From positions 1 through 53,728 of the forward strand of contig JBDRBU010000118.1 of the NCBI GenBank assembly GCA_043822305.1: 53,728 nucleotides of DNA, written 5' to 3'. Each line of letters begins with the position of its first letter. The stretch's first letter is position 1. This DNA comes from Candidatus Firestoneibacteriota bacterium (GTDB lineage: Bacteria > Oederibacteriota > D2-FULL-39-29 > JBDRBU01). Below the pieces are notes generated by a model. That model was not told where the DNA came from, did no database searches, and was given only the letters and a program-made list of their open reading frames with translations. Below are positions 3,509 through 29,458 of the stretch, one piece after another. The position numbers and the translations under genes are program-made.

Positions 3509-6241
3509 ATGAAAAAAATATTTATCTTTCCTTTTAGAATATTAAAGGATAAAATCCCTGCGGAATTAGTGCTTCATTTTGCTCTGAAAAATTTTCCTAA
3601 TCCCAAAGGGAAAATTTGTTATATTGCTCCTACCCAAAGGAAAGTCAATGAAACAAAAGGAATTTTTAAGACCTCCAATAATATAGATTTTTATAATCCT
3701 GATAGTTTTACTGGTGAGATTTATAATGAATATTCCAGCAGAAGAGTTATAGATGAAAAAACCAAATTACTTTTAATCTTAGATATTTTAAGTTCTACTG
3801 AAAAGTTTAAAAAAATATTTGGTAACTCCACAGGAACTATTTCTTTGATTTTTGAATTTATTAATAACTTAAAATTTTGTCTTTATCAAAATGAAATTCC
3901 TTTATTAAGAAAAAAGGTTGAAAAACTCTTAAATGGTTATGATCTAGTTAAGGAACAAGGGTTACTGGCCATAGATATTTTTGAAACTTATGAAAATGTT
4001 ATTAAAGGGAAAAACATAATAGATGAAATAGATAAAAAGTTAGAAGTAGCGAATATTATAGAAAAAAATAAGATTAATTTTGATATATGTGTCTTTGATG
4101 GATTTTATGATTTGCCAAAAGTAGAAGAAATTTTATTTGAGAAAATTATAAACAATAGTAAAAATGTGCTGGCTATTGTTTATCATGATAAAAGAATAGA
4201 TGAAATTCAGAACCTGGAAAATGATTTTTTAATTTTTTTAAACAAATTTAAAGATTTTGAGATTTCAGAGGAGAAGCCAAATTATAAGATAAGAATTAAA
4301 AATGGAGAAGATGTAATAAAGGCGATATCAATAGAAGATGAAGTAACCAGTGTGGCCAGAGCCATAAGATATTTGGGTGAAGAAGAAAAAATAAAGGAAG
4401 AAGATATTATAGTAACTTTCCCTTCTATGTATGCTTACATACCATACATTGAAAGAATTTTCAAAAAGTATAATATAAATTTTACGACATCAGTAGAAAA
4501 ATCATTTAGTTCTTTCCCGCAAGTTATCCCAGTGATAACACTTTTAGAATGTATCTTAGAAAATTACCCACGAAGAAAAATAATAGATATTGTTACATCA
4601 AATTATTTTAATAGATTTTCAAGTAAGGTCAAGGATTTGATTTCTATTGTTTCAAGAAAAGCAGGGATAGTTTGCGGTCTAGGAGAATGGCTGGAAATTG
4701 ATATAAGGATAAAAGACAATGATAAAAAGTTTTATGAAAAGTATCAAAAAGATATAGAATTAATTAAAAAAGAACTTGAAGAATTTTTTAAATTAACGAA
4801 GATAAACAAAAAAATTTCTTTATCTGAATTTGTATTGTTCTTAAAAAATCTTCTCGATGGTTTACGAGCTGAAATAACCAATGAAGAGGTAAAAAAAGTA
4901 TTTAATGAAATATTGGATTCATTTATATCCCATACTAAAATTTTTGGTGAAAAACACTATGATTTTGTTGATATTTGTTTAATGTTCAAAAATATTTTAG
5001 CCAGAACAAATTTCGAAAAAGAGTATTTTCATAATGGTGTAAAAGTATTAGGTATTCTTGAGACAAGAGGTTTATATGCGAAATATATTTTCTTTGGTGG
5101 TCTTGGTGATGGAGATTATCCATTAAAACCAAAGCAAGAAATGATATTGCCTGATAAAGTAAGGAAAGAATTTGGTTTAATGTATTTTGAAAGAAGAATA
5201 AACATACAAAGATTGCATTTCTATAGACTTATAGAATCTTCTGAAATAGATACATTTCTTTCTTATCCCATGCAAGAAAAAGATAAAGTAATTCTACCAT
5301 CAAATTTTTTACCACAAATTATAAATAATGTTAAACATCACCATTTTAACCTTGAAAATGTGCATTTTAATGAAGAAGAAAGACAAAGACATAATGGCGG
5401 ATTAACGAGAAAAGAATTTGAAGGTTTTAAGAAAATTGAATTTATGAACCCGGATGAGATGAGGAAAATTATAGGTAAGTTTTATGGCGAAGATAAATAT
5501 ATAAGTGTTACTGTCTTAGATAAATATATAAAATGTCCTTTTATTTTTTATATAGAAGAAGTTCTTAAAATCCTGCCTTTTAAAGAACCAACATATGAAT
5601 TAGACAATGCTACTTTTGGTAAAATAGTGCATTCAGTAATGAAAGATACATTTAAGGAAGGGGAAAAGAATATTGATAATATTAGGAAAAGCGTTTATAT
5701 CTCTTTAGATGATATTTTAAATAAAGAAAGATTAAAACCTTTCTGGAAGGATTTTATTAAAAATAAAATTGATTTTATTGTTGATAATATTGTAAAAGAA
5801 GAAACAAAACTAATGAATGTTTTTCCTAATATTTTATATTTAGAGAAATATGTTAAAGCAGAAATAATACCTAATAAATTAAGACTTAAGGGTAAAATAG
5901 ATAGAGTAGATATAAATGGAGATAATTTTCTTGTAATAGATTATAAAACAGGTAGCGGTATCTCTGGTTTTATTACTGATACAAATAAAATAAGAAGTTT
6001 ACAGTTAGCCTTATACGCTAAAATAGTTATGGTAGAAAATTCAAGATTAAGTTTAGGTGGGTTAGGCGTGTATAATTTAAGAGAAGGCAGAATAAAATTT
6101 ATTGGAGAGAAAATATTAAATAATTTAATTGAAGAAGCAGTAAAGAAAGCAGAAGAAATAGTACATAATATAAGAAACACTAATTTCACAAAAATTGAAG
6201 AAAAAAATTGTTGGAGATGTAGATATAAAGGAGTATGTTAA
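3509..6241 (+). CDS. AddB/RexB-like protein: degenerate helicase scaffold plus C-terminal PD-(D/E)XK nuclease with Fe-S cysteines
   Basis: FDGFYD, KCPF, GKIVH, LKGKIDRVD...IDYKTG, LQLALY, C-terminal CWRCRYKGVC (CxxCx5C). Confidence 0.8.
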   Translation: MKKIFIFPFRILKDKIPAELVLHFALKNFPNPKGKICYIAPTQRKVNETKGIFKTSNNIDFYNPDSFTGEIYNEYSSRRVIDEKTKLLLILDILSSTEKFKKIFGNSTGTISLIFEFINNLKFCLYQNEIPLLRKKVEKLLNGYDLVKEQGLLAIDIFETYENVIKGKNIIDEIDKKLEVANIIEKNKINFDICVFDGFYDLPKVEEILFEKIINNSKNVLAIVYHDKRIDEIQNLENDFLIFLNKFKDFEISEEKPNYKIRIKNGEDVIKAISIEDEVTSVARAIRYLGEEEKIKEEDIIVTFPSMYAYIPYIERIFKKYNINFTTSVEKSFSSFPQVIPVITLLECILENYPRRKIIDIVTSNYFNRFSSKVKDLISIVSRKAGIVCGLGEWLEIDIRIKDNDKKFYEKYQKDIELIKKELEEFFKLTKINKKISLSEFVLFLKNLLDGLRAEITNEEVKKVFNEILDSFISHTKIFGEKHYDFVDICLMFKNILARTNFEKEYFHNGVKVLGILETRGLYAKYIFFGGLGDGDYPLKPKQEMILPDKVRKEFGLMYFERRINIQRLHFYRLIESSEIDTFLSYPMQEKDKVILPSNFLPQIINNVKHHHFNLENVHFNEEERQRHNGGLTRKEFEGFKKIEFMNPDEMRKIIGKFYGEDKYISVTVLDKYIKCPFIFYIEEVLKILPFKEPTYELDNATFGKIVHSVMKDTFKEGEKNIDNIRKSVYISLDDILNKERLKPFWKDFIKNKIDFIVDNIVKEETKLMNVFPNILYLEKYVKAEIIPNKLRLKGKIDRVDINGDNFLVIDYKTGSGISGFITDTNKIRSLQLALYAKIVMVENSRLSLGGLGVYNLREGRIKFIGEKILNNLIEEAVKKAEEIVHNIRNTNFTKIEEKNCWRCRYKGVC

Positions 6242-6266
6242 AAACAGGGACACATCCTGTTTTTTT
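6241..6266 (+). terminator. Probable intrinsic terminator formed around a GGGACACATCC repeat
   Basis: aaaacagg-gacacat-cctgtttt stem-loop followed by a T run, directly after the AddB-like stop codon. Confidence 0.55.
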
Positions 6267-6288
6267 AGTAGATAAAGATGATAAAAAA

Positions 6289-6297
6289 TGATATAAT
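6289..6297 (+). promoter_or_regulatory. Extended -10 promoter element for glnA
   Basis: TGaTATAAT; the same motif in an A-rich context recurs upstream of the first PPIase gene and rpsB. Confidence 0.55.
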
Positions 6298-6330
6298 TTA
6301 TTCATGAAAAGAATTTTAAAAGGAGGGAAG

Positions 6331-7698
6331 ATGCAGAACAAGATTAATAATAAAAATACATTGAAAGGGGTAAAAGCAAGAGATGCAAAAGATGTGATAA
6401 AACTTTGTAAGGAATATGATATAAAATTTGTAAGGTTATGGTTTTCTGATATTTTAGGGGTTTTAAAAGGATTCGCCATAACCATAGAAGAATTAGAAGG
6501 GGCTTTGTCCGAAGGTATGGGTTTTGATGGAAGTAGTATTGAAGGATTTGCAAGAATAGACGAGAGTGATATGATCGCCTTACCCGACCCATCAACTTTC
6601 CAGATTTTACCCTGGAGACCATCTGAGAATGCTGTCGGTAGGATGCATTGTGATATTAAACAACCAGATGGGAGTTCATATGAAGGGGACCCCAGATATG
6701 TTTTAAGAAGAATATTAAAAAAAGCATCTAATTTAGGATACACTTTTAATGTTGGTCCCGAATTAGAATATTTTTATTTTAAAGATTCAACAAATACTAC
6801 TGTTCTTGACCAGGGAGGATATTTTGATTTAACTCCACTTGATATGGGAACAGATATGAGAAGGGAAACTATATCTTATTTGGAAGCATTAGGGATTAAA
6901 GTAGAATATAGCCATCATGAAGTAGCACCATCTCAACATGAAATAGACTTAAGATATGCTGATGCTTTAACTATGGCCGATAATGTTATGACTTATAGAC
7001 TTGTCGTAAAAGAAGTTGCACAAAAAAATGGTGTCTATGCTACTTTTATGCCAAAACCTATGTTTGGGCATAATGGAAGCGGAATGCATGTTCATCAGAG
7101 TTTATTTAAAGGAAATACGAATGCATTCTTTGAATTAAAAGATAAATATCATCTTTCTAAAATTGCAAAATGTTATATAGCCGGATTGTTAAAACATGCT
7201 AAAGAAATAACGGCTATAACAAGTCAATGGGTTAACTCTTACAAAAGGTTAGTTCCTGGTTATGAGGCACCAGTTTATATTTCATGGGCAAGAAGGAACA
7301 GGTCGGATTTAATAAGAATACCAATGTATAAACCAGGGAAGGAAAAGGCGACAAGAGTTGAGTATCGTTCGCCGGATCCTGCTTGTAATCCTTACTTAGC
7401 CTTTGCGGTGATGCTGGCTGCTGGTTTAAAAGGGATTGAAGAAAATTATCCTTTATCAGAACCTGTTGAGAGGAATGTTTATGAGATGAGCGAAGAAGAG
7501 AGAATGAAATTTGGTATTGGTTCTCTTCCTGGTAGTTTAATTGAAGCAGTTGAAATAACAGAAAAAAGTAAATTAATAAAAGAAACATTAGGAACCCATG
7601 TATTTGAGAACTTCATCAAGAATAAGAAAATAGAATGGGATAACTATAGAATTCAAATTACATCATGGGAAAAAGAGAAGTACTTACCAATATTATAA
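6331..7698 (+). CDS. glnA: Glutamine synthetase type I
   Basis: FDGSSIEGF, HHEVAPSQHEI, ATFMPKP, NGSGMHVHQS, YKRLVPGYEAP, RVEYRSPDPACNPYL; RBS aggaggg before ATG 6331. Confidence 0.97.
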   Translation: MQNKINNKNTLKGVKARDAKDVIKLCKEYDIKFVRLWFSDILGVLKGFAITIEELEGALSEGMGFDGSSIEGFARIDESDMIALPDPSTFQILPWRPSENAVGRMHCDIKQPDGSSYEGDPRYVLRRILKKASNLGYTFNVGPELEYFYFKDSTNTTVLDQGGYFDLTPLDMGTDMRRETISYLEALGIKVEYSHHEVAPSQHEIDLRYADALTMADNVMTYRLVVKEVAQKNGVYATFMPKPMFGHNGSGMHVHQSLFKGNTNAFFELKDKYHLSKIAKCYIAGLLKHAKEITAITSQWVNSYKRLVPGYEAPVYISWARRNRSDLIRIPMYKPGKEKATRVEYRSPDPACNPYLAFAVMLAAGLKGIEENYPLSEPVERNVYEMSEEERMKFGIGSLPGSLIEAVEITEKSKLIKETLGTHVFENFIKNKKIEWDNYRIQITSWEKEKYLPIL

Positions 7699-7792: not shown

Positions 7793-8701
7793 TTAACTAC
7801 TTTTATCTAACACATATTTTTTTAACTTTTTAAATTTGTCAAAAGGGTTTTTATCTGTAGATACTCTGCCAAATTTTTCAATAATTTTAATTTCTTCAGG
7901 AGTCGCTTTTATCAAATAACTCGTTGGAGTAAATTGGTCAAGAATATATCCTTTATGATTTAAAGATTTTAAATTTTTGTATATGCGATTATAAGATATG
8001 GGTTTTTTTGAGGCAATTCTATATGTCCATCCCATGGCAAAACAAGGCATATCAATTCTGGCTGTAAGTATGTATGGATAAACCGATTTTAAAGTTTTAT
8101 ATATTGTTGAGTATGATTCTGGAAATATAACATAATTATCAGTGTGAATACTTAAGACCCCATTTTTATTTAATCTTTGAGTAGTTAATTTATAGAATTC
8201 TTTTGTGTAAAGCATTTTTGATGGACCATGTGGTTCTGTTAAATCTATGACTATTACATCAAACTTTTCTGGATTATCTTCAAGGTATTTTCTGGCATCC
8301 AAATAGACAATTTCTACTCTTTTATCTTTTAAAACTTTTTTAATTACAGGATAATGTTTTAAACAAAAATCCACAACTCCTTTATCAATCTCTACCATCA
8401 GTATTCTTTTTAATGACGAATGCTTTATGGCTTCTTCAAGAGCAAAGCAGTCACCACCACCAACTATACAAATGCTTTTTGGATTGTTATGTGCCAAAAG
8501 TGGTGCATCAACAAGATATTGGTGATATCTGTTTTCGTCTCTTTCCGAAATTTGAATTTTACCATCCAGAAAGAGTATCGTGCCAAAAGTTTTGTTTTTA
8601 AATATCTCCATAGTTTGAAAAGGTGTTTTACCGTAGTAAAGTCTTTTCCCGGTGTATATATGTCCAAATTCGTTTGTTGTCCATTCTGCTTTTTTTTGCA
8701 T
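7793..8701 (-). CDS. speE: Spermidine synthase / aminopropyltransferase family
   Basis: LFLDGKIQ, VGGGD, VEIDKGVV, FDVIVIDLTEPHGPS, LYTKEFY; start moved to ATG 8701 behind RBS ggaggt. Confidence 0.85.
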   Translation of the reverse strand: MQKKAEWTTNEFGHIYTGKRLYYGKTPFQTMEIFKNKTFGTILFLDGKIQISERDENRYHQYLVDAPLLAHNNPKSICIVGGGDCFALEEAIKHSSLKRILMVEIDKGVVDFCLKHYPVIKKVLKDKRVEIVYLDARKYLEDNPEKFDVIVIDLTEPHGPSKMLYTKEFYKLTTQRLNKNGVLSIHTDNYVIFPESYSTIYKTLKSVYPYILTARIDMPCFAMGWTYRIASKKPISYNRIYKNLKSLNHKGYILDQFTPTSYLIKATPEEIKIIEKFGRVSTDKNPFDKFKKLKKYVLDKSS

Positions 8702-8868
8702 TTTTACCTCCACAAGATAATAGGATTGAAATTCATATACTTGATTATACCAGAACTAATCAATGAAGTGAAGAATTATTTTCATTGAATTATTTTAAAA
8801 TTAAATGTATAATAAACATAATATGTAAGTCGTTAAAATATCGAAAATAATGTGTCCTGTATAAAACA

Positions 8869-8891
8869 CGCAGGCTAAAGCCTGCGGCTAC
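8869..8891 (-). repeat. GTAG-family REP (GTAGCCGCAGGCTTTAGCCTGCG on the minus strand)
   Basis: cgcaggctaaagcctgcggctac with a perfect CGCAGGC/GCCTGCG stem; 2 mismatches to the copy at 7768-7790. Confidence 0.7.
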
Positions 8892-8911
8892 AAATTACGA
8901 GGAGGCAAATT

Positions 8912-10027
8912 ATGGATGTAACTGTTAAACCGGTAAGGAGTGATAAAGAACTTAAAGATTTTATTGATTTACCCTGGAAAGTGTATAAAGATTTTCCTCA
9001 TTGGATTCCACCCTTAAAGAAAGAAGTAAAAGAGATGCTTGATGCTAAAATTTATCCTTTTTGGCAGCATGCTGAGAGAGAATTATTTGTAGCCTATCAA
9101 GGAGATGAACCAGTGGGAAGGATTTCGGCCATAATAGATGAGAACCATAATAAATTTCAAGAAGAAAAGGCAGGGTTTTTTGGTTTTTTTGAATGTTGGC
9201 CAGATTATAATGTTGCTGAAAAGTTATTTGCCGTGGCGAAAGAATGGTGTCAGAAGAAAGGAGCATCTTTTTTAAGAGGTCCAGCAAGTCCAAGCCTTAA
9301 TGATGAATGTGGATTTTTGTTAGAAGGTTTTGATGAAGACCCGGCCATAATGATGCCTTATACACCGCCATATTATTTAGAGTTTTCTGAAAAATTTGGG
9401 TTTAAGAAGATAAAAGATTTATATGCTTTTTTGAAGACAGCTGAAACGGGCATACCTGAAAGAATAGAAAAAATGATGAAAAGAATTTCAAGAAACAGTA
9501 ATATAAAGGTGAGAAAATTTGATATTAAAAATTTTGATAGAGATGTCCAAATCATTAAAGATGTTTATAATTCAGCCTGGGAAAAGAATTGGGGATTCGT
9601 TCCTATGACTTCTGCGGAATTTGATCTTTCTGCTAAAAAGATGAGGGATTTTTTTGACCCAAGACTTATTTTAATAGCAGAAGTAAATGGTGAAGTTGCC
9701 GGAGTTACTATTACCTTACCTAATATAAATGAAGTATTAAAAAAAATAAATGGCAAACTTGGTCCAATTGAAATAATGAAATTTCTTTATTATAAGAGAA
9801 AAATCAAAGGTTGCAGAACTTTAGTTGGCGGTGTTAAAAAAGAGCATAGAACAACAGGAGTAATTGCTGTTTTATTTTATGAAAATGGAATAAGAGCAAT
9901 AGAAGCCGGATATAAGTGGTGCGAATTAGGTTGGAATTTAGAGGATAATGATTTAATAAACCGTTTTGATGTTGAAGTAGGTGGAGTGTTGTATAAAAAG
10001 TACAGACTTTACCAGATGCCGTTATAG
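8912..10027 (+). CDS. YghO-like double-GNAT N-acyltransferase
   Basis: FIDLPWKVY...WIPPL, VGRISAI, GFFGFFE, LRGPASPSLNDECG, NWGFVPMT, ELGWNLEDN, YKKYRLY. Confidence 0.75.
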   Translation: MDVTVKPVRSDKELKDFIDLPWKVYKDFPHWIPPLKKEVKEMLDAKIYPFWQHAERELFVAYQGDEPVGRISAIIDENHNKFQEEKAGFFGFFECWPDYNVAEKLFAVAKEWCQKKGASFLRGPASPSLNDECGFLLEGFDEDPAIMMPYTPPYYLEFSEKFGFKKIKDLYAFLKTAETGIPERIEKMMKRISRNSNIKVRKFDIKNFDRDVQIIKDVYNSAWEKNWGFVPMTSAEFDLSAKKMRDFFDPRLILIAEVNGEVAGVTITLPNINEVLKKINGKLGPIEIMKFLYYKRKIKGCRTLVGGVKKEHRTTGVIAVLFYENGIRAIEAGYKWCELGWNLEDNDLINRFDVEVGGVLYKKYRLYQMPL

Positions 10028-10053
10028 GCATCATAGACTAAAGTCTAAATTGT

Positions 10054-11025
10054 ATGCTTTTAGATAATTATAATAGAAAAATAGAATATTTACGAGTTTC
10101 AGTTACTGATAGATGTAATTTAAGATGTATATATTGCATGCCCAAAGATGGAATTCGTTTAAAACTCAGCAAAGAAATACTTAGTTTTGAAGAGATTGAA
10201 AAAATAATTAAAATTTTTATTAAATTAGGAGTAAAAAAAGTAAAAATTACTGGTGGTGAACCATTAGTTAGAAAAGGGATTATTGAATTGTTAAAAAAAC
10301 TTTCGGTTTTGGAAAATTTAAAAGATATATCATTAACAACAAACGGAGTATTTTTAGAAGAACATTCGGAGCAAATTAAAAATTCTGGTATAAATAAAAT
10401 AAATGTTAGTCTTGATACGCTTAATGAAGATAAATTTAATTTAATAACAGGTGGTAATTGTTTGCCTAAGATTTTAAGTGGTTTAAGAAAAGCGAAAGAG
10501 ACAGGAATTTCTTTAATAAAGATAAATGTAGTAATTTTAAAAGGAATAAATGATGATGAGATTTTGGATTTTGTAAAATTTAGTGAAGAAAATAATTATA
10601 TAATAAGATTTATTGAGTATATGCCTTTAAATAAAGCATTTGCGAATTTTAGATTTATTTCTAACAACGAAATTAAAGAAATAATTTCCAAGTATTTTGG
10701 AGAACTTAAACCCGCTGAAGTTGTATTAGGAAATGGGCCTGCTAAATATTATGTAACTAACGATAATACTATTATTGGTTTTATAAGCCCACTTTCAGAA
10801 TGTTTTTGTGACTCTTGTCATAGAATAAGACTTACTTGTGACGGGAAAGTAAAAGCATGTTTATTTTCGGATTGTATGTTGGATATTAAAGAGATGATAA
10901 GAAAAGATATGGATGAAAGTAATATTGTAAAAGCGATTAAGGAGTTGGTTATGGAGAAACCTCTAAGGTATAAATCTGAGTATTTAAATTCCGAGAAGAC
11001 TTTTATGAGTCAAATTGGAGGGTGA
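10054..11025 (+). CDS. moaA: GTP 3',8-cyclase (radical SAM)
   Basis: LRVSVTDRCNLRCIYCMP, TGGEPL, C-terminal CDSCHRIRLTCDGKVKAC and terminal IGG. Confidence 0.95.
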   Translation: MLLDNYNRKIEYLRVSVTDRCNLRCIYCMPKDGIRLKLSKEILSFEEIEKIIKIFIKLGVKKVKITGGEPLVRKGIIELLKKLSVLENLKDISLTTNGVFLEEHSEQIKNSGINKINVSLDTLNEDKFNLITGGNCLPKILSGLRKAKETGISLIKINVVILKGINDDEILDFVKFSEENNYIIRFIEYMPLNKAFANFRFISNNEIKEIISKYFGELKPAEVVLGNGPAKYYVTNDNTIIGFISPLSECFCDSCHRIRLTCDGKVKACLFSDCMLDIKEMIRKDMDESNIVKAIKELVMEKPLRYKSEYLNSEKTFMSQIGG

Positions 11026-11460
11026 GTGGAAGGAAAAGTTATTGCTGTTTGTCTAAGCGAGAAAAAAGGCACTTCCAAAAAGAATGTAGGAAAAGGCGAG
11101 ATAAAAGAAAATTTTGGAATAATAGGTGATGCTCATGCCGGTGATAAAGAAAGGCAGGTTAGTTTACTTGCAAAAGAAAGTATAGATAAAGTTGTAAAAA
11201 GAGGTATTGATATAAAGCCCGGTGACTTTGCTGAAAACATAACGACAGAGGGTATTGATTTATTAAAATTAAACATAAGAGATAAGGTTTTTATAGGTGA
11301 TAAAATAATTCTTGAAGTAACAAAAATAGGTAAAGAATGCGTAAGTCCATGTGCAATTTACCATACTCTGGGAGAGTGTATAATGCCCAGAGAAGGTATA
11401 TTTACAAAAGTAATATCAGGAGGAATAGTTAAAATAGAGGATAGGGTTGTTATTAAATAG
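11026..11460 (+). CDS. MOSC domain protein
   Basis: GDAHAG...RQVSLL, PGDFAENITTEG, GKECxxxC, CIMPREGIF. Confidence 0.9.
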   Translation: MEGKVIAVCLSEKKGTSKKNVGKGEIKENFGIIGDAHAGDKERQVSLLAKESIDKVVKRGIDIKPGDFAENITTEGIDLLKLNIRDKVFIGDKIILEVTKIGKECVSPCAIYHTLGECIMPREGIFTKVISGGIVKIEDRVVIK

Positions 11461-11486
11461 GATGTGTCCCCATTTAGGAGGTATTT

Positions 11487-12794
11487 ATGTTAGATCCAAA
11501 AATATTTGTAGGATATGAAGGTATTGATAAAGAAAATTATATAATTGGTCTTTATCTTTTTGAGGGAGAATCAGAAGATATACTAAAAAAGGTTGAAGCC
11601 ATTGCGCTTGAACAATCTACTGGAACCTGGATGGATGTTCCTAAGGAAACAGAAGAAATTAGAGAGAAATGTGTGGCCAGAGTTCTTGGTGTTTATGAAA
11701 TACCGCAATATGAAGATGCTCTTCCAAAAGATGTAAAAGAAAGGAAGATACTATTTTTAATAGGATTTCCTAAGGATAATATAAATGGACAGATACCTCA
11801 GATGCTTACTGCATTATATGGCAACATATCCATGGCCGGAAAATTAAAATTATTAGATGTGTTTTTGCCAGAATCTTTTGCGAAGAAATTTAAAGGTCCA
11901 AAATTTGGTATTGAAGGAATAAGAAAGATACTAAATGTTTATGATCGGCCGATATTAATCGCGATGTTTAAACCATGTGTTGGCCTGGACCCGAAAACAC
12001 TTGGTAATCTTTTATACGAATTGGGTGTTGGTGGAGTTGATATTATCAAAGACGATGAATTATTGGCTGACCCTGAGTTTTGCAAGGTAGAAGAAAGATT
12101 AGAGGAATGTTTAAAAGCATGTGAAAAAGTTTATAAAAAGACAGGTAGGAAAGTTTTATATTCAATAAATATTACTGATAATTTTGATAAGATGTTTAAA
12201 AAGGCGAAAAATGCTGTAAAAAATGGAGCAAACTGTTTAATGGTAAATGTTTATACGGTTAGTTTTTCAGCATTAAGTGTCTTAGCCGAAGATTCTGAAA
12301 TAAATGTTCCTATCTTAGCCCATCCGGACTTCGCTGGTGCATTTTTTGGTTCTCCACAATATGGACTGAGTTCAAATCTCGTTTTAGGAAAATTAGTCCG
12401 ACTTTCTGGAGCTGATATGGTTATTTATCCAAGTTATTTTGGTAAAGTTCCTATGGTAAAAGAAAGAGTAATTAGAATTGCACAGGAATTAACTTCTCCA
12501 TTTTACCATTTAAAGAGAGTATTCCCCGGTCCTTCTGCTGGAATGCATCCTGGTTTGGTGCCTCAAACCATAAAAGATTTTGGTCATGATGTTATTCTAG
12601 GAGCAGGTGGTGGAATTCATGCTCATCCCCTGGGTGCTATTTCTGGAGCAAAGGCATTTCATCAGGCTATGGATGCTGTGAAGAAAAATATTCCTTTAAA
12701 AGAATATGCTAAAAAACATAAAGAGTTAAAGATAGCGATAGAGAAATGGGGAATGTATGAAGATAAATCGAATATTTATACTTTAACTAAATGA
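11487..12794 (+). CDS. RuBisCO-like protein (form IV RLP)
   Basis: EQSTGTW, GPKFGIEGIR, FKPCVGL, GVDIIKDDE (carbamylation motif), AHPDFAG, PSAGMHPG, GAGGGIHAHP; lacks carboxylase K177 and R295 equivalents. Confidence 0.93.
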   Translation: MLDPKIFVGYEGIDKENYIIGLYLFEGESEDILKKVEAIALEQSTGTWMDVPKETEEIREKCVARVLGVYEIPQYEDALPKDVKERKILFLIGFPKDNINGQIPQMLTALYGNISMAGKLKLLDVFLPESFAKKFKGPKFGIEGIRKILNVYDRPILIAMFKPCVGLDPKTLGNLLYELGVGGVDIIKDDELLADPEFCKVEERLEECLKACEKVYKKTGRKVLYSINITDNFDKMFKKAKNAVKNGANCLMVNVYTVSFSALSVLAEDSEINVPILAHPDFAGAFFGSPQYGLSSNLVLGKLVRLSGADMVIYPSYFGKVPMVKERVIRIAQELTSPFYHLKRVFPGPSAGMHPGLVPQTIKDFGHDVILGAGGGIHAHPLGAISGAKAFHQAMDAVKKNIPLKEYAKKHKELKIAIEKWGMYEDKSNIYTLTK

Positions 12795-12797
12795 GGG

Positions 12798-12833
12798 ACA
12801 ACCCCCTAACCCCCTTTATTAAGGGGGAATTAA
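12798..12833 (+). repeat. 36-bp CCCCCT...AAGGGGG hairpin repeat, copy 1
   Basis: acaaccccctaaccccctttattaagggggaattaa; 35/36 identical to 15948-15983. Confidence 0.85.
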
Positions 12834-12847
12834 AAATAGAGGAAAAT

Positions 12848-14242
12848 ATGATAAAATTTAAAGAACCATTAGATAAGTTAATAAACCAACCGAAAAAGTT
12901 CACGAAACATTTAAAGTTTCCAAAGCCAGGTAAAATTAAAATTTATGATGATACTTTAAGAGATGGGGAGCAGATGCCAGGCGTAGCCTTTAGTCCAGAA
13001 CAAAAACTTAAATTAGCAAAACTTTTAAGTGATATGGGTGTGCATGTCATGGATGTTGCCTTTCCTGTTAATGGTGAGTCGGATTGTAAAGGATTACAAC
13101 TCATAGTTCAGGCACAAAAAAAAGGCGAAATAAAAAAAGAGATAGAAATTCTTGCTATGTGCCGGAGTAATTCATCCGATGTTGATATAGTGATTAAGAC
13201 ACTGGCTGAAATAGGTGCAGAACCAGATGATGTCAGTATTTTAATATTATCTACAATATCTGATTTACATATAAAATATAAATTAGGCAGGACATTATTA
13301 AAAAGGGAAGGAAAATCGGCTGATAAATGGATTTCTACTCCGCTGGAGTTTTTTAGACAGGCAAATACGAATATGGTCTGTGATACAATTAGATATGCCA
13401 AATCAAAGGGGATAAGCAGGATAGAGTTTGCTTCAGAAGATGCTTCCAGAGGAAATATAGAGTATGGTGTGAAATGGGCAAAGGCATGCATAAAAGCAGG
13501 TGGCACCAGGATGTGTTTTTCAGATACCTGCGGTGTCTTTACTCCGGAGTCAGTTGATTACTACATTCCCAGAATGATAAAAGCATTAGATGGAATTCCG
13601 ATGACTGCTCATTTTCATAATGATTTTGGTCTGGGCGCATTAAATACTGTTAGAGCCGTAAAACATGGTGCTACTTACATGGGAGTTACAGCAAATGCTA
13701 TAGGTGAAAGAGCGGGTAATACATCTATACATCAGGTAGTAATGATTTTAAAGGAATTATATGGTGTAGAAATTCCAGGATTTAAGTATCATCTGCTTCA
13801 TCATCTAAGAAGAGAAGTTGAAAAATATTCTGGTATTCCCATACAGCCACATGAACCTATAATTGGTGAAGGAGTTTTTGCTCATGAATCAGGAATTCAT
13901 ACGGCCGGTATTTTAATCCATCCAGCCATCTATCAGTTTATAAGAGAAGAAACTGTAGGCGGTAAACAAAAGTTTGTATTTGGAAAGCATAGTGGTGCTG
14001 GTGCCGTCGAAAGTGTATTAAAGAAAAACGAGGATATACTTAAGAAAAAAGGAATAGAAATTACTCCAGAGTTGATTTCTAAATTACTTAACAAAGTAAA
14101 ACAAATAAGAGAAAAACAAATTAGAAATTATGAAGATTATATTGAGAATTATTATAAAAACTATAATAGTTTGGGTATTTCCGAGGAACAACTTATGGAG
14201 ATAGCGATGTCTATAAGTAAAGAAAGAAAAGAAAGAAACTAA
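12848..14242 (+). CDS. LeuA/homocitrate/citramalate synthase-family (DRE-TIM) enzyme without the C-terminal regulatory domain
   Basis: DDTLRDGEQMPG, EDASR, DTCG, HFHNDFG, GERAGN, FAHESGIH, FGKHSG; start moved to ATG 12848 (RBS agagga) because the 12791 start translates a repeat. Confidence 0.85.
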   Translation: MIKFKEPLDKLINQPKKFTKHLKFPKPGKIKIYDDTLRDGEQMPGVAFSPEQKLKLAKLLSDMGVHVMDVAFPVNGESDCKGLQLIVQAQKKGEIKKEIEILAMCRSNSSDVDIVIKTLAEIGAEPDDVSILILSTISDLHIKYKLGRTLLKREGKSADKWISTPLEFFRQANTNMVCDTIRYAKSKGISRIEFASEDASRGNIEYGVKWAKACIKAGGTRMCFSDTCGVFTPESVDYYIPRMIKALDGIPMTAHFHNDFGLGALNTVRAVKHGATYMGVTANAIGERAGNTSIHQVVMILKELYGVEIPGFKYHLLHHLRREVEKYSGIPIQPHEPIIGEGVFAHESGIHTAGILIHPAIYQFIREETVGGKQKFVFGKHSGAGAVESVLKKNEDILKKKGIEITPELISKLLNKVKQIREKQIRNYEDYIENYYKNYNSLGISEEQLMEIAMSISKERKERN

Positions 14243-14244
14243 AG

Positions 14245-15063
14245 ATGGAAAATATAATATTAGGTAGAACTTTATATGAGGATGATTTTAAAACAGACGA
14301 ACCAGAAGATGCGGGGTGTACCCACGCACCACTAGAGGATGCGGGGTGTACTTTTTTAAAGGAAATTTATTTATCTGGTGAATTTAACCATTTGGAATTA
14401 TTTTCAGAAGCATATAATAAGATTAAATTAGATGACTACTACAAAATAAAAAATTTTCTAATAGAAAAGAAAGTAAGTTTATCTTATCATCCGTGGCTTG
14501 ATATTTCTACATTTACTTTCTCGGATAAAGTTATAAACTTAAAGCAAATAATAAGAGATTGCGAAAAAATTGGCATGAAATACTGTGTCTTGCATCTGGG
14601 TTCTTTTGAAGGTGACAAATATGAATGTTTGCAGAATTTAGTAGAAGTTTTTGGTGAAATTTTAGATAATTTCTCTACGGTAAAAGTGTGTCTTGAAAAT
14701 GTCCCACTTATCTGTGAATGGGATGATAAGACGATGCTTGGATCGGCTATTGAAGATTTTGATTATATATTTAGTAAGATAAACAGTGAAAATTTAGGAA
14801 TGAATATAGATGTTGGACACTGTAATCTAACTTCAAATAATTTTTCTGATTTGGTTGGTAATTTTTCTGAAAAGATTTTTTCGGCCCATTTATCCGATAA
14901 TAATGGAATAAAAGATGAACATATTGCTTTAGGTAAGGGCAATATAAAGTGGGAAGAAATATTTAAGGTGTTTAAAGATATGAACTTTAAAGGTCCGTTT
15001 GTTTTGGAACTCAAAGAAGAGTATATTAAAGAAAGTTATAATTTTTTGAAACAATTTATATAA
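14245..15063 (+). CDS. Sugar phosphate isomerase/epimerase (AP endonuclease 2 / xylose isomerase-like TIM barrel)
   Basis: VLHLG, CLENV, NIDVGH, HLSDNNG..DEHIALGKG, FVLE metal-binding pattern. Confidence 0.85.
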   Translation: MENIILGRTLYEDDFKTDEPEDAGCTHAPLEDAGCTFLKEIYLSGEFNHLELFSEAYNKIKLDDYYKIKNFLIEKKVSLSYHPWLDISTFTFSDKVINLKQIIRDCEKIGMKYCVLHLGSFEGDKYECLQNLVEVFGEILDNFSTVKVCLENVPLICEWDDKTMLGSAIEDFDYIFSKINSENLGMNIDVGHCNLTSNNFSDLVGNFSEKIFSAHLSDNNGIKDEHIALGKGNIKWEEIFKVFKDMNFKGPFVLELKEEYIKESYNFLKQFI

Positions 15064-15077
15064 GGAGGAGGAGAGAT

Positions 15078-15947
15078 ATGTATAAATTAGCAGCGTTCAC
15101 GGATGAGATTTCTCAGGATTTAGATGTGGTCATAAGTGTAGCCAAGAAGTATGAATTAGAGGGATTAGAGATAAGAAGCGTGAATAATAAGGGACCTCAT
15201 AATTTTACTAAAGACGAAATTAAGGTTATAAAAAGCAAGATAGGAGATTCGGGTTTAAAAGTTTGCTCCATTGCAAGTCCTTTCTTTAAATGCGACATAA
15301 ATAGCGAAAAAGGATACAATGAGCATTTGGATATATTAAAAAATTGTATTAACTTAGCTCATATACTTGGCACTAATATAGTAAGAGGATTTACTTTCTG
15401 GAGAACAGGGGATACGGATAGATATTTTGACAGGATAGTAGATAAGTTTACTAAGCCTATAGAGATAGTTAAAAAAGAAGGGATTATTCTTGGTATAGAG
15501 AATGAATCTGCAACATTTGTGGGAACAGGAAAATATTTAGCCCGATTTTTGAAAGCAGTAAATTCGGATGTAATAAAAGCAATATGGGACCCTGCAAATG
15601 AGGTTCATGATTTAACATATGGAGAGTCACCATTTCCGACAGGATATAACTGGGTGAAAGATAAGATAGTGCATGTTCATCTAAAAGATGCAATTAAAGT
15701 TGGAGAGTCGGGTAAGCCAGAGTCAGTTCCAGTGGGTGAAGGAGATGTTAACTACTGGGGACAGTTGAGGGCATTAAAAGAAGATGGATATGATGGATAC
15801 ATCTCATTAGAAACACATTGGAGGAAGAAAACTAAACTTACAGAAGATCAAGTAAATAGACCCGGCGGAAGTGATTATTCTGCCTTTGCAAAAGAATCAA
15901 GTGAATATTGTTTGGAAAATATACACAAGATAATTAATAGTATATAA
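15078..15947 (+). CDS. Sugar phosphate isomerase/epimerase (xylose isomerase-like TIM barrel)
   Basis: AFTDEIS, GIENE, WDPAN, HVHLKD, VGEGDV, GYDGYISLETH. Confidence 0.88.
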   Translation: MYKLAAFTDEISQDLDVVISVAKKYELEGLEIRSVNNKGPHNFTKDEIKVIKSKIGDSGLKVCSIASPFFKCDINSEKGYNEHLDILKNCINLAHILGTNIVRGFTFWRTGDTDRYFDRIVDKFTKPIEIVKKEGIILGIENESATFVGTGKYLARFLKAVNSDVIKAIWDPANEVHDLTYGESPFPTGYNWVKDKIVHVHLKDAIKVGESGKPESVPVGEGDVNYWGQLRALKEDGYDGYISLETHWRKKTKLTEDQVNRPGGSDYSAFAKESSEYCLENIHKIINSI

Positions 15948-15983
15948 ACAACCCCCTAACCCCCTTTGTTAAGGGGGAATTAA
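15948..15983 (+). repeat. 36-bp CCCCCT...AAGGGGG hairpin repeat, copy 2
   Basis: acaaccccctaaccccctttgttaagggggaattaa directly after the stop codon. Confidence 0.85.
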
Positions 15984-16005
15984 GGGAAATTAAAGTGGAG
16001 GGGTT

Positions 16006-16974
16006 ATGAATAAAAAATTGTTTATAGTGGAAAGGTTTTTATTTGGTTTGTTGATTATGTTTTTATTTATTGGAAATTGTTATTCAACTCCGATAGTTGC
16101 TGAACCAGTGATGCCTATAACAGAAGGCAAAAGTGATCTAAAAATTAAATTCAGTTATTTTGAGGCTAATGGATTTTATAATGACAGTACAAATTTTTCC
16201 GAGTTTCAAGTTGGCGAATCAAGAAATGGATATGAGGTTATGGTTGGTTTAAAATATGGCTCTGGTAAAGACAGCGAGATGGAGTTGAAAGTTCCATATA
16301 TTTATAAAAATCATATAAAACCTGGCGATAACAAACTTTCTTGTTCGGGATTTGGAGATGTATATCTTATTGGTAAAAATAAAGTTATTGATAATAAAAT
16401 TTCACAAAGTTTTATGGCTATTAGTCTGGGGGCAAAATTCCCTACGGGAAAAAGTATTTACAATGTTAATAAAAATGTTTTACCAACCGGGTCCGGTACC
16501 TGGGATATAATAGGTGGAATTTATCTTCAGGAAAAAAGAGAAAATTTTATAATTTACGGGGATATTTCATATATATATAGATTTGGTTTAGTGTCTTCTG
16601 GTTTTGCTGGTTATGGGATATCAGAGATAAATTCTGCTGAAACTGAAGTAAAAATCACTCCAGGTGGTTCTCTTAATCTTAATCTTGCAGCAGAATATCC
16701 ACTATTTAAGTTGATTTCGGTTATTACGGAACTTAACTGGGTGTTTAATTATGAAAGCAGGGTGGAATATGTAAAGTCTGGAGTAGATGCATTATCTGAT
16801 CTTACTTTAAAGTCTCCTGAATTACAAAAGTCAAATACTTTTAAATCGACTTCGGGCGTGAAGATATATCTTGGGAATAATATTTCTTTTGGTGTTGGTG
16901 TTGGAGTTCCAATGTCGATGGTTAATAGTTATGGTGGATTAACTTATTTTGTAAACGCGGAAGCAATTTTTTGA
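16006..16974 (+). CDS. Putative outer-membrane beta-barrel (MetA-pathway/COG4313-like channel)
   Basis: Signal peptide; [22 protein letters not shown] motifs; alternating beta-strand pattern; C-terminal YFVNAEAIF beta-signal. Confidence 0.65.
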
Positions 16975-16984
16975 GAGGTGGATT

Positions 16985-19603
16985 ATGTGGGATTTATTAA
17001 AATCAATATTTGGCACTAAGAATGAGCGTGAAATAAAAAGATTTCAACCTTTAGTTGATAAGATTAATTCTTTAGAGCCGGGAATTCAAAAGTTAAGTGA
17101 TAATGAACTAAAGGATAAGACAAATGAGTTTAAAGAGCGACTGGCTAAAGGCGAGACATTAGATGATTTATTACCAGAGGCATATGCTGTTGTAAGAGAA
17201 ACAGCAAAAAGAACTATAGGGCAAAGGCATTTTGATGTCCAACTTATAGGTGGAATTGTTTTACATCAGGGAAGAATTGCGGAAATGAAAACAGGTGAAG
17301 GAAAGACGCTTGTTTCAACACTTCCAGTGTATCTTAACGCATTAACAGGTAAAGGCGTGCATATTATTACTGTAAATGATTATTTAGCTGAAAGAGACAG
17401 TTTTGGAAAGGGTAATTTCAAAGGGATGGGGAATATATACGGATTTTTAGGTTTAACATTTGGTTGTATAAGACATGACTCAACTCCAGATGAAAGAAAA
17501 GCTGCATATGGGTCAGATATTACATATGGCACAAATAATGAATTTGGTTTTGATTATTTAAGGGATAATATGGTTAGTTCTATTAATGATATTGTTCAAG
17601 GAGAATTAAACTATGCTATTGTTGATGAAGTTGATAGTATCTTAATAGATGAAGCCAGGACTCCGTTAATAATTTCAGGACCCGCTGAAGAATCTACAGA
17701 CAAATATTATAAAATGAATAGACTTGCACCATCTTTTGAAAAAGAAGTTGACTTTAAGATAGACGAAAAAACTAAAACAGTTTCCATTACAGAAGCAGGT
17801 GTGGCTAAGGCCGAGAAACTTACCGCGATTCCTAATCTTTTTGATGGACTTCACCTTGATTGGATACATCATTTAATCAATGCTTTAAGAGCACATATAT
17901 TTTTTAAAAGAGATGTTGATTACATGATTAAAGATGGTGAGGTTTTAATAGTTGATGAATTCACCGGAAGACTCATGCCGGGTAGACGATGGAGTGATGG
18001 ATTACATCAAGCCATTGAAGCCAAAGAAGGAGTTGAGATAAGAAGGGAAAATCAAACTCTGGCCACTATTACATTTCAAAATTATTTTAGAATGTATAAG
18101 AAATTATCTGGTATGACTGGAACGGCTGAGACGGAAGCAGTAGAGTTTATGCATATATACAAACTTGATGTAGTAATTGTTCCAACAAATAAACCAATGA
18201 TAAGAGTAGATTATCCTGATGTTGTTTATAAGACCAGAAAAGAAAAATTAAAAGCAATTGTTGAAGAAATAATTGAATTAAATAAAATAGGTAGACCTGT
18301 CTTAGTTGGAACAACTTCTATAGAGAGAAATGAGGAATTATCGCTTTTATTAAATAAAAGAGGTGTTAAACACCAACTTTTAAATGCAAAATTTCATGAG
18401 AAGGAAGCAGAAATTATATCATCAGCTGGACAAAGAGGTACTGTAACTGTTGCGACAAATATGGCTGGAAGAGGTACGGATATAGTCTTAGGCGAAGGAG
18501 TTGCTGTGATTGGCGGTTTGCATGTACTTGGAACTGAAAGACATGAGGCCAGAAGAATAGATAATCAACTTCGTGGTAGATGTGGAAGACAGGGTGACCT
18601 TGGTTCGTCAAGATTTTATTTAACTTTAGAAGATGATTTAATGAGAATATTTGGTGGGGAGAAAATTTTTGCTATTATGGATAGATTTGGGATGGAAGAA
18701 GACACCCAGATTACGCATCCCTGGATTTCAAGAACTATTGAGGGTGCACAAAAAAAGGTGGAAAATTATAACTTTGAAATTAGAAAACATTTACTTGAGT
18801 ACGATGATGTTATGAATAAGCAAAGAGAAGTAGTTTATAGCGAGAGAAAATTAACATTAGAAGGTAAGGATTTAAGGGGCCATATATTAAGATGGATAAG
18901 TGATAATGTGGAAATTCTAATTGATACATATGCTCCGGAAAAGGCTTCTCCATATGAATGGGATTTAGATGAAATTAAATCTCGTGTAGGAGACTTATTT
19001 ACTATTGATTTATATTTAAAAAAAGAAGAAATTCTTAAAATGAGAAGAGAAGCTTTAAAGGCGAATATTGAAGAAGATATTAAGAAAAAGTATGAAACTA
19101 AAGTTGAATCAATAGGTTCTGAACTGTTTAATCAGGTTGAAAAAATGGTTATGCTTCAAGTGGTGGATTCAAAATGGAAAGACCATTTATATAATATGGA
19201 CCAATTGAAAGAGGGTATTGGACTTAGAGGATATGCCGGTAAAGACCCTTTAATTGAATATAAAAGAGAAGGTTATGAAATGTTTATGGATATGATCTCG
19301 AGGATAAAAGAAGAGGTAGTTAAATATTTATTCAGAATTCAAATAAAGTCAGAAGAAAGACCATCTTTTGGGGTAACAGCTGATAAGAGACTAACCAATG
19401 TGCAATATCAACATAAAGAGGTTGAACAGTTTAATGTTGTTGCTGAAAGAGCGCGAAGGCATTCGCCTACGAGAGAAATGGAAGCAGAACCAGAGCATAA
19501 ACTCCTGCCTGTAAAAAGAACCAGCCCTAAAGTTGGAAGAAACGACCCTTGTCCTTGCGGGAGTGGAAAAAAATACAAAAAATGCTGCGGTAATAAATTA
19601 TGA
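16985..19603 (+). CDS. secA: Preprotein translocase subunit SecA
   Basis: [39 protein letters not shown]-terminal [23 protein letters not shown]. Confidence 0.99.
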
Positions 19604-29074: not shown

Positions 29075-29430
29075 GTAATTTGATGGCAAAAGAATATAAA
29101 TCATTTGAAGCAATAAAGCATCTTTCAGAGGATGGTCATGAATTTTGGTATGCCCGTGAGCTGGCCATGGTACTTGAATATGTGCAATGGCGTAATTTTG
29201 CTAAAGTATTAGATAGGGCAATGCTTTCTTGTAAGAACAGCGGGTATGAGATTATGGATCATTTTGCTGACCTCAGCAAAACGATAAAGATGCCCAAAAC
29301 TGCCACTAAACAAGTTGATGATTATAAACTTACTCGTTATGCCTGTTATTTGATTGTTCAAAATGGAGACCCCCGGAAAGAGGTTATTGCCTTAGGGCAA
29401 ACTTATTTTGCCATTCAAAAAAAAAATTAA
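29071..29430 (+). pseudogene. dinD: Truncated DNA damage-inducible protein D (N-terminal Bro-N-like part only)
   Basis: EFWYARELAMVLEY..WRNF, DYKLTRYACYLIVQNGDPRKEVIALGQTYFAIQ, then stop after an A10 run. Confidence 0.75.
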
Positions 29431-29458
29431 TGCTGGATGAAGGATGAGAGGTTGTAAT

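Follow-up and report, generated by a model that had tools for sequence, protein, structure and literature searches.

A conserved module of a RuBisCO-like protein, apparently mis-annotated as MtnW, and a LeuA-like synthase within a lineage-specific four-gene cluster

Organization of the locus

The window analyzed here, meaning the whole stretch of 53,728 nucleotides, is contig C118 (JBDRBU010000118.1) of the 2.15-Mb, 96.8% complete assembly of a Candidatus Firestoneibacteriota bacterium (GCA_043822305.1; genome G000). Below, G-numbers denote genomes of the phylum, of which 99 were surveyed, and L-numbers denote the loci compared. Five co-oriented genes on the plus strand of this window encode a RuBisCO-like protein (RLP), a synthase of the LeuA/homocitrate-synthase family, two xylose-isomerase-like TIM barrels (TIM1 and TIM2) and a probable outer-membrane beta-barrel (Table 1). 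Their identity, order and orientation agree with a preliminary description made from the DNA alone, as judged from the open reading frames (ORFs) and Pfam and, for the barrel, from an Atlas model. Our sequence comparisons indicate that the RLP and the LeuA-like synthase form a real and conserved module, that the RLP is mis-annotated as the methionine-salvage enolase MtnW, and that the four-gene cluster is lineage-specific.

The genes have the ORF-list coordinates given in Table 1, except for the synthase, which is listed as 12791–14242. Its start is most likely 12848, because the database gene model has 464 residues, orthologues align from that Met and a hairpin repeat occupies 12797–12833; use of the upstream ATG at 12791 is unlikely. 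The RLP gene is therefore followed by a 53-bp spacer rather than by a 4-bp overlap.

Table 1. Features of the cluster, with positions in the window
Feature	Position	Strand	Basis
RuBisCO-like protein (RLP), form IV, 435 aa	11487..12794	+	Pfam PF00016 + PF02788, NF007095, residue table, tree
Copy of genome-wide hairpin element (C5/G5 stem), RLP–synthase spacer	12797..12833	+	Sequence reading, core-match count
LeuA/homocitrate-synthase-family Claisen-type synthase, 464 aa	12848..14242	+	PF00682, PF22617, motifs, 464-aa gene model
Xylose-isomerase-like TIM barrel 1 (TIM1), 272 aa	14245..15063	+	PF01261
Xylose-isomerase-like TIM barrel 2 (TIM2), ketose 3-epimerase-like, 289 aa	15078..15947	+	PF01261, 4xsl match
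Second hairpin-element copy, TIM2 to beta-barrel spacer	15947..15983	+	Core matches
Probable outer-membrane beta-barrel (Phenol_MetA_deg-like), 322 aa	16006..16974	+	Atlas model match

A form IV RLP predicted to lack the distal phosphate site

Both domains of the RuBisCO large subunit were detected in the RLP above cut-off (PF00016 RuBisCO_large, 185.9 bits; PF02788 RuBisCO_large_N, 32.5 bits) and some catalytic residues are lost, which by sequence assigns the protein to form IV of the RuBisCO superfamily. Its best solved relative is MtnW of G. kaustophilus (E 2.7e-101, end-to-end alignment), and the closest relatives of the RLP and the synthase are labelled Candidatus Firestonebacteria and Desantisbacteria. 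Residues were compared across 134 RuBisCO-family sequences from all loci, in spinach RuBisCO numbering anchored on two true form III sequences (L023 and L024) that pass TIGR03326; the positions followed are those that we take to define the complete catalytic and bisphosphate-binding site. The RLP has Glu60, Asn123, Lys175, Lys201, Asp203, Glu204, His294 and Lys334 in common with the form III proteins, as well as Thr65, Trp66, Ser379, Gly381 and Gly403/404, a set that includes the metal and carbamate residues and the proximal-phosphate glycines. By comparison, Thr173, Lys177, Arg295, His298 and His327 are replaced by Met, Cys, Pro, Ala and Ile, respectively. All 24 clade members compared have the retained residues and the Cys at 177 (Cys164 of the RLP) without exception. 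The RLP thus appears to be devoid of the distal-phosphate site. These replacements, together with a form III score (TIGR03326) of 279.3 against a cut-off of 497, make a bisphosphate substrate unlikely, and a bona fide RuBisCO of forms I–III was rejected on the same grounds. In RuBisCO, Glu60, Asn123 and Lys334 are dispensable for enolisation and are needed for carboxylation.

The RLP and G. kaustophilus MtnW (2oek) share Lys175, the metal site of carbamylated Lys, Asp and Glu, His294 and the proximal-phosphate glycines, and both lack Lys177, Arg295 and His327. They differ in that the RLP has Asn113 at the position of RuBisCO Asn123, which in MtnW is occupied by Lys98, presumably the enolase base, as well as a Lys in loop 6 where MtnW has Ser, and the invariant Cys at 177. 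Of the 134 sequences, four combine Lys at 123 with Ser at 334, as is typical of MtnW, and three of these four loci are flanked by class II aldolase and HAD genes. Placed in a form IV phylogeny, as the preliminary description had proposed, the RLP falls outside the MtnW clade. This tree comprises the 105 rows left after removal of 29 rows at least 93% identical to a kept one, and was built by a quick method (LG+G4) with the SH-like approximate likelihood-ratio test (SH-aLRT) as the only support. The MtnW-type rows form a clade of their own (SH-aLRT 100), and the window RLP lies in an 18-row clade (96) inside an 83-row group carrying Asn123, Cys177 and Lys334 (83). By this topology, the Asn/Cys/Lys group would be sister to the MtnW (YkrW) clade and not part of it. 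Lys334 is lost in the MtnW clade and in a clade associated with E1/E2 genes, and the MtnW clade also lacks Glu60 and Asn123.

Profile scores point in the same direction. On the MtnW model TIGR03332 the RLP reaches 387.5 against a cut-off of 513.6, whereas on NF007095 it is marginally above threshold (435.3 versus 409). The MtnW-pattern control sequences score 619–656 on NF007095 and 544–640 on TIGR03332, so that the window RLP lies about 200 bits below them on both models, and six other members of its group score 364–400 and 310–357, respectively. Since TIGR03332 fails, the tree position is outside the MtnW clade, Asn replaces Lys98 and loop 6 has Lys instead of Ser, we conclude from sequence that the RLP is very probably not an MtnW enolase; its naming through NF007095 as the enolase acting on 2,3-diketo-5-methylthiopentyl 1-phosphate is probably an over-annotation.

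The rest of the genome was searched for methionine-salvage genes. MtnA is present in G000 and adjoins a purine-nucleoside-type phosphorylase (C19; L028:7149-9007), whereas MtnK (TIGR01767) and acireductone dioxygenase (ARD/MtnD; PF03079) gave no match in this 96.8% complete genome. The sole class II aldolase scores 53.7 against a cut-off of 137 on the MtnB model TIGR03328 and has as neighbours an aldehyde:ferredoxin oxidoreductase gene and one for a rhamnulokinase-like kinase (C77; L029:7377-11317). The partner set of methionine salvage is thus incomplete in G000, with MtnA found and MtnK, an MtnB-level aldolase and ARD not found (MtnX was not searched for). The window itself holds no mtn genes or sugar kinases according to Pfam and NCBIfam annotation of its ORFs, in agreement with the preliminary description. 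MtnA occurs in 93 of the 99 genomes, with or without the RLP, and therefore does not discriminate for a role of the RLP linked to 5'-methylthioadenosine. The MtnA–phosphorylase and aldolase/kinase loci could together provide an outlet for MtnA products resembling the dihydroxyacetone phosphate (DHAP) shunt, in which the RLP is not needed.

The synthase as a divergent member of the LeuA family

The synthase consists of an HMGL-like domain (PF00682, 168.4 bits) and an HCS_D2 domain (PF22617, 49 bits), and no LeuA_dimer domain was detected in it with Pfam. It falls below all equivalog cut-offs, namely those for LeuA (TIGR00973, 223.4 versus 598.7), CimA (TIGR00977, 152.7 versus 450), NifV (TIGR02660, 250.4 versus 462.9) and LysS (TIGR02146, 229 versus 413.6). 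The best solved matches are 6e1j and 6ktq. The Arg-Asp, His-x-His and subdomain-II catalytic-His motifs, which serve metal binding and catalysis in DRE-TIM enzymes, are kept in 40 of 40 aligned subfamily members and in comparison with 6e1j and 6ktq, and the synthase is accordingly predicted to keep every motif of acetyl-CoA-dependent Claisen condensation.

The DRE-TIM barrel, the HCS_D2 domain and these motifs are common to the window synthase and to LeuA, CimA, homocitrate synthase and methylthioalkylmalate synthase. Unlike these enzymes, it lacks LeuA_dimer, and its subfamily carries a conserved insertion of 18–21 residues rich in basic residues. In the alignment, it also differs from the LeuA and CimA of G000 at positions that we take to line the 2-oxo-acid pocket. 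The subfamily spans several candidate phyla and is 58–80% identical across 120 clusters among the matches listed; its members are mostly named 'hypothetical protein' in NCBI records, and the ESM Atlas returned only generic 'putative 2-isopropylmalate synthase' clusters.

Other members of the family are encoded elsewhere in G000. LeuA lies with LeuC and LeuB (C87) and CimA on C49, both LeuA and CimA scoring above their cut-offs. A third, divergent LeuA/homocitrate-synthase paralogue on C1 (8816-10267; L177:5817-7268, plus strand) divergently adjoins icd and mdh. This position, together with the presence of an aconitase and the absence of a Si-citrate synthase match (PF00285) in G000, makes the C1 paralogue the better candidate for a Re-citrate synthase, which it probably is. 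It is found in 45 of the 99 genomes, a distribution unlike that of the window synthase; the latter was rejected as the Re-citrate synthase of the organism on account of the icd–mdh neighbourhood of the C1 gene and the different phyletic pattern. The window synthase thus appears to be a fourth LeuA-family paralogue beside LeuA, CimA and the probable Re-citrate synthase. Neither of the two ordinary identities that the preliminary description had considered is borne out: its scores and the paralogues elsewhere in the genome set the synthase apart from homocitrate and citramalate synthases, and the TIGR03332 result, the active-site residues, the separate clade and the scores below the MtnW-pattern controls set the RLP apart from a standard methionine-salvage enzyme.

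Conservation of the RLP–synthase pair

Orthologues were called in the 99 genomes at E <= 1e-140 for the RLP (the next best match drops to 1e-76) and at E <= 1e-100 for the synthase. An RLP orthologue is present in 21 genomes, a synthase orthologue in 19 and both in 18. The three RLP-only genomes are G008, whose RLP contig is cut 33 residues into the synthase (L002), G039 (76% complete) and G033 (100% complete), and in the single synthase-only genome, G010, the contig begins inside the synthase gene. The pair is adjacent on one contig in eight genomes (G000, G006, G009, G011, G012, G013, G016 and G017), and the genes lie at contig ends, where adjacency is possible, in G007, G014, G015 and G010. 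All 13 genomes of the window's class therefore have the pair adjacent (eight) or are compatible with adjacency (five, G008 included). Nine genome-contig loci have an RLP at 70–76% identity; in seven of them the synthase gene comes immediately after the RLP gene, and the other two end inside the RLP gene. By comparison, the synthase is absent from the 15 more distant RLP loci compared.

The pair is also found in a second phylum. Both Desantisbacteria genomes compared have the two genes side by side, and in the synthase tree as in the RLP tree Desantisbacteria is the neighbour of the window's class. No synthase occurs in three genomes whose RLPs are of distant types. Seven RLP/synthase cluster pairs, including Omnitrophica- and Elusimicrobia-labelled ones, were matched indirectly, by equal length of the longest contig. 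Both genes are present and unlinked in seven genomes (G001–G005, G038 and G074). In the closed genome G074, the cluster holding the synthase contains GT2 glycosyltransferases, DegT aminotransferases, methyltransferases, an aldo-keto reductase and a UDP-glucose dehydrogenase; the RLP gene lies 1.25 Mb from the synthase and adjoins genes for a URO-D-like protein, a radical SAM protein and a FAD oxidoreductase.

Flanking genes differ between lineages, so that only the RLP–synthase pair is conserved. In L001 and L010, a GFO/IDH/MocA gene and another xylose-isomerase-like TIM barrel lie divergently upstream; in L004 and L005, TIM2, the beta-barrel and secA lie downstream. L008 has rpe and a xylose-isomerase-like TIM barrel upstream and a GlcD-like FAD oxidase and zinc alcohol dehydrogenases (Zn-ADHs) downstream, and the downstream genes in L003 are those for a FAD oxidase, DeoC-like aldolase and Zn-ADH. 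G013 and G017 have the pair in surroundings of unrelated genes. In both Desantisbacteria, the synthase gene is followed by one for a GlcD-like FAD oxidase. The GlcD-like oxidase of G000 (C96) was considered as an orthologue of this enzyme and set aside, being only 37% identical and thus uninformative.

Accessory genes and surroundings of the pair

The two TIM barrels match PF01261 (TIM1, 101 bits; TIM2, 115.1 bits; cut-off 31.1), and neither reaches an NCBIfam equivalog cut-off (best scores 51.5 and 51.8 bits, cut-offs 129–200). The best solved relatives are distant, MJ1311 (3wqo, E 1.9e-14) for TIM1 and the D-tagatose 3-epimerase 4xsl (E 1.7e-7) for TIM2. No TIM1 orthologue lies beside the pair in the other loci, the sole tblastn match being of 83 residues at 29% identity (L010). 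TIM2 orthologues occur in 12 of the 99 genomes, all of one class, and of these only families f1 and f2 have TIM2 next to the pair; in L004 and L005 TIM2 lies downstream of the synthase. The two TIM barrels are therefore lineage-specific accessories and not part of a conserved unit. The gene association suggested in the preliminary description consequently holds for the RLP and the synthase (13 genomes of the class, with adjacency seen or possible, and two of Desantisbacteria; co-occurrence in 18 of 99) and fails for the two TIM barrels.

No Pfam family was matched by the 322-residue ORF downstream of TIM2. Its Atlas model superposes on outer-membrane barrels of the Phenol_MetA_deg type with template-modelling (TM) scores of 0.77–0.80, a lead to its identity. 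Orthologues at 33–34% identity are present in L004 and L005, there between TIM2 and secA, and no evidence tying the barrel to the pathway was found in these comparisons.

Two copies of a hairpin element bracket the synthase–TIM1–TIM2 block. A C5/G5 hairpin and an A/T-rich conserved tail make up the element, which recurs in intergenic spacers throughout the genome and has 84 matches in G000 (18-base core, at most two mismatches), two of them in this cluster. Predicted folding of the two spacers is no better than that of shuffled sequences (z -0.72 and -0.34). The element looks similar to repetitive extragenic palindromes (REP-like).

Upstream of the cluster lie glnA, speE, moaA and a gene with a MOSC domain; downstream of it are secA, lnt and genes for glycogen synthase, a sugar ABC transporter and a type I restriction system, together with aroC/aroK, argC/argJ and rpsB/tsf. 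All annotated ORFs of at least 100 residues from 8912 to the window end lie on the plus strand, and co-orientation of the cluster is therefore no evidence of an operon. A scan of 8500–17500 for promoters and terminators stayed at the level of shuffled sequence (43 versus 40.5 and 6 versus 4.0) and yielded no operon boundaries. Two other features of the window were noted. An ORF of 371 residues upstream of moaA (8912–10027) matched no Pfam or NCBIfam family. The type I restriction-modification system (hsdM, hsdS and hsdR; 26669–34702) has a BRO-N domain gene and a YhcG-type PD-(D/E)XK nuclease gene inserted between hsdM and hsdS.

The wider RLP family

In the largest related RLP clade (44–50% identity), an FGGY kinase lies directly upstream of the RLP in 33 metagenome loci, with a class-III aminotransferase in 15 and a saccharopine-dehydrogenase-like gene in 12. 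These loci, within L032–L090 (e.g., L032:19-5868 and L041:4434-8509), have the same Asn/Cys/Lys pattern and represent a second uncharacterized RLP system. Other RLP clades adjoin PEP-hydrolase-like and UPF0261 genes, or E1/E2 genes of the pyruvate/acetoin-dehydrogenase type. Since the neighbours include FGGY kinases in related clades, the family as a whole likely serves sugar-phosphate metabolism, with phosphorylated ketoses as substrates.

The clade associated with E1/E2 genes carries Asn123, Lys177 and Ser at 334 and adjoins E2, E1-alpha and E1-beta genes (L017:7986-12614, L022:224-4320, L018 and L019), again an RLP paired with an acetyl-CoA-related enzyme; the RLP in L022 also follows a rhamnulokinase-like FGGY kinase. 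The single metagenome contig of L083 carries two RLP genes of the window RLP's group (6001-7287 and 10935-12197; identity to the window RLP 51% and 48%) with about 3.6 kb between them, near a phosphotransferase system EIIC gene and a sugar-binding regulator.

Discussion

Functional coupling of the RLP and the synthase appears reasonably probable from their conservation. A fuller reading, in which the two enzymes are a conserved module of an undescribed pathway, inherited together and joined by the TIM barrels as accessories, is tentative and falls just short of an even chance; the order in which the RLP acts before the synthase is possible, with the balance of probability somewhat against it. 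In this order, the RLP would enolise a keto-sugar that bears a single phosphate beside its carbonyl and whose distal end is apolar or short, a substrate suggested by the kept proximal phosphate site and by the Pro, Ala and Ile that now occupy the distal one. The reaction would probably go beyond mere tautomerisation, since the retained Glu60, Asn123 and Lys334 are used by RuBisCO after enolisation; the enzyme may add or remove a carboxyl group or cleave the enediolate. Either a D-2-hydroxy acid or a 2-oxo acid would result. A D-2-hydroxy acid would be oxidized where needed, for example by a GlcD-like FAD oxidase, and the synthase would condense the 2-oxo acid with acetyl-CoA to a 2-substituted malate. 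Such a sequence, with the oxidase as an optional step between the RLP and the synthase, fits the gene order in Desantisbacteria and the D-2-hydroxy acids that would arise from RuBisCO-type cleavage.

Several observations weigh against this reading. The 100% complete genome G033 has the RLP and no synthase at E <= 1e-100, and the coupling is therefore not obligate. Where the two genes are unlinked, their surroundings are unrelated; in G001 the synthase stands beside rpoN and a Kdo-transferase gene, and in G074 it lies inside a polysaccharide/nucleotide-sugar cluster (L159:3140-16337). None of 80 metagenome loci with RLPs at 38–53% identity has the synthase, which confines the link to one clade. 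The synthase subfamily also occurs in metagenome-assembled genomes labelled Nitrospirae and Vicinamibacterales, and it has Vulcanimicrobiota-labelled members as well (RLP presence in all of these lay outside the comparison). One ancestral gain followed by vertical descent could yield much of the co-occurrence, the counts being uncorrected for kinship. In the loci examined, the synthase has beside it neither an aconitase-type isomerase nor a dehydrogenase of its own, which is unusual for 2-oxo-acid elongation.

The main competing explanation reverses the order, and we regard it as unlikely. The synthase would build a branched 2-hydroxy-2-carboxy skeleton from acetyl-CoA and a 2-oxo acid derived from a sugar or phosphosugar, a neighbouring enzyme (GFO/IDH/MocA, Zn-ADH or FAD oxidase) would oxidize it, and the RLP would decarboxylate or hydrolyse the resulting beta-keto acid phosphate, as apiose RLPs do. 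Retention of Glu60, Asn123 and Lys334, which handle the carboxylated intermediate in RuBisCO, is consistent with this order, as is the recurrence of oxidoreductases and xylose-isomerase-like TIM barrels near the pair (in L001 and L010, a GFO/IDH/MocA gene with such a TIM barrel; in L003 and L008, a FAD oxidase with Zn-ADH). The accessory oxidoreductases vary across lineages, however, and in all loci examined the vicinity of the pair is free of a kinase that might phosphorylate the branched acid. In addition, we know of no phosphorylated 2-oxo-acid substrate for the synthase family, phosphonopyruvate-type cases aside. A precedent for the chemistry is available. According to the part of PMC6302742 that cites Carter et al. 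2018, the apiose-pathway RLPs, a 3-oxo-isoapionate-4-phosphate decarboxylase and a transcarboxylase/hydrolase, take a phosphorylated tertiary-alcohol beta-keto acid as substrate. As form IV proteins that take a monophosphorylated branched keto acid sugar and work on a carboxylated intermediate (PMC6302742, same part), they are by analogy an earlier example of an RLP whose reaction goes beyond proton transfer. The window RLP is recognized by their NCBIfam model OiaX with 214.8 bits, a score far under the cut-off of 700; moreover, no apiose-pathway kinase or oxidoisomerase lies nearby in the window, and the partner here is a Claisen synthase.

Two further alternatives dispense with a new pathway. 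The genes may be neighbours by descent alone, the synthase serving amino-acid or tricarboxylic-acid-cycle metabolism and the RLP being an unrelated sugar-phosphate isomerase. The co-directional housekeeping genes around the cluster, the seven genomes with unlinked genes in unrelated contexts and the lone RLP of G033 speak for this, as does the lack of a Si-citrate synthase in G000, by which some LeuA-family enzyme must make citrate. That task is better assigned to the C1 paralogue, however, and LeuA and CimA are present above their cut-offs. Furthermore, the pair alone persists across at least six flank arrangements and in a second phylum, and the two genes co-occur even when unlinked, 18 of 19 synthase genomes having the RLP, so that mere descent seems improbable. 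The ordinary annotation, an MtnW enolase beside an isopropylmalate, citramalate or homocitrate synthase, draws on the marginal NF007095 score, the G. kaustophilus MtnW structure as best solved relative, the MtnA gene beside a purine-nucleoside-type phosphorylase and speE in the window. We consider it hardly credible in view of the TIGR03332 shortfall, the far higher scores and fully supported separate clade of the MtnW-pattern sequences, Asn at the position of Lys98 and Lys instead of Ser in loop 6, the missing MtnK and ARD and the low MtnB score of the aldolase in a nearly complete genome, the occurrence of MtnA irrespective of the RLP, and the synthase scores under every equivalog cut-off with LeuA and CimA encoded elsewhere. 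The conserved neighbour of the window RLP is a LeuA-like synthase, in a genome devoid of MtnB- or MtnD-level matches.

A more specific version of the RLP-first module was also considered, in which the pair would stand at the centre of a route that needs no oxygen and salvages the ribose moiety of 5'-methylthioadenosine and 5'-deoxyadenosine; we judge it very unlikely. The RLP would carboxylate and cleave methylthio- or 5-deoxy-ribulose 1-phosphate, the MtnA product, to 3-phosphoglycerate and a D-2-hydroxy acid (3-methylthiolactate or D-lactate), which a D-2-hydroxy-acid dehydrogenase would oxidize. The synthase, with the housekeeping LeuCD and LeuB, would then add one carbon to 3-methylthiopyruvate and so form methionine's keto acid, 4-methylthio-2-oxobutanoate. 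If this were true, the RLP would be a carboxylase acting on a monophosphate and methionine salvage would be closed without dioxygen.

No paper that connects an RLP with a LeuA-family enzyme (isopropylmalate, homocitrate or citramalate synthase) turned up in a literature search, in line with the preliminary description, which knew of no RLP pathway with such a condensing enzyme; likewise, none was found that links an RLP to FGGY kinases or 'RuBisCO-like protein' to Firestonebacteria. Most form IV RLPs are without an assigned function in the portions of PMC7325909 and PMC8307300 consulted, and those of anaerobes such as Moorella are described as unassigned in that of PMC7325909. With each RLP solved so far, whether the methionine-salvage enolase, the 5-methylthioribulose-1-phosphate isomerase or the apiose decarboxylase/transcarboxylase, chemistry new to the RuBisCO scaffold came to light. 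The present clade is unusual in that the post-enolisation residues of RuBisCO are kept while the second phosphate site is lost, and in its tie to a dedicated acetyl-CoA condensing enzyme that itself belongs to an unassigned subfamily. The conserved pair points to a metabolic pathway not yet described. Solving it would annotate hundreds of genes in uncultured anaerobes that are now 'hypothetical' or mis-named as 'MtnW' or 'isopropylmalate synthase', and the pair bears on the origin or loss of carboxylation chemistry in the RuBisCO superfamily.

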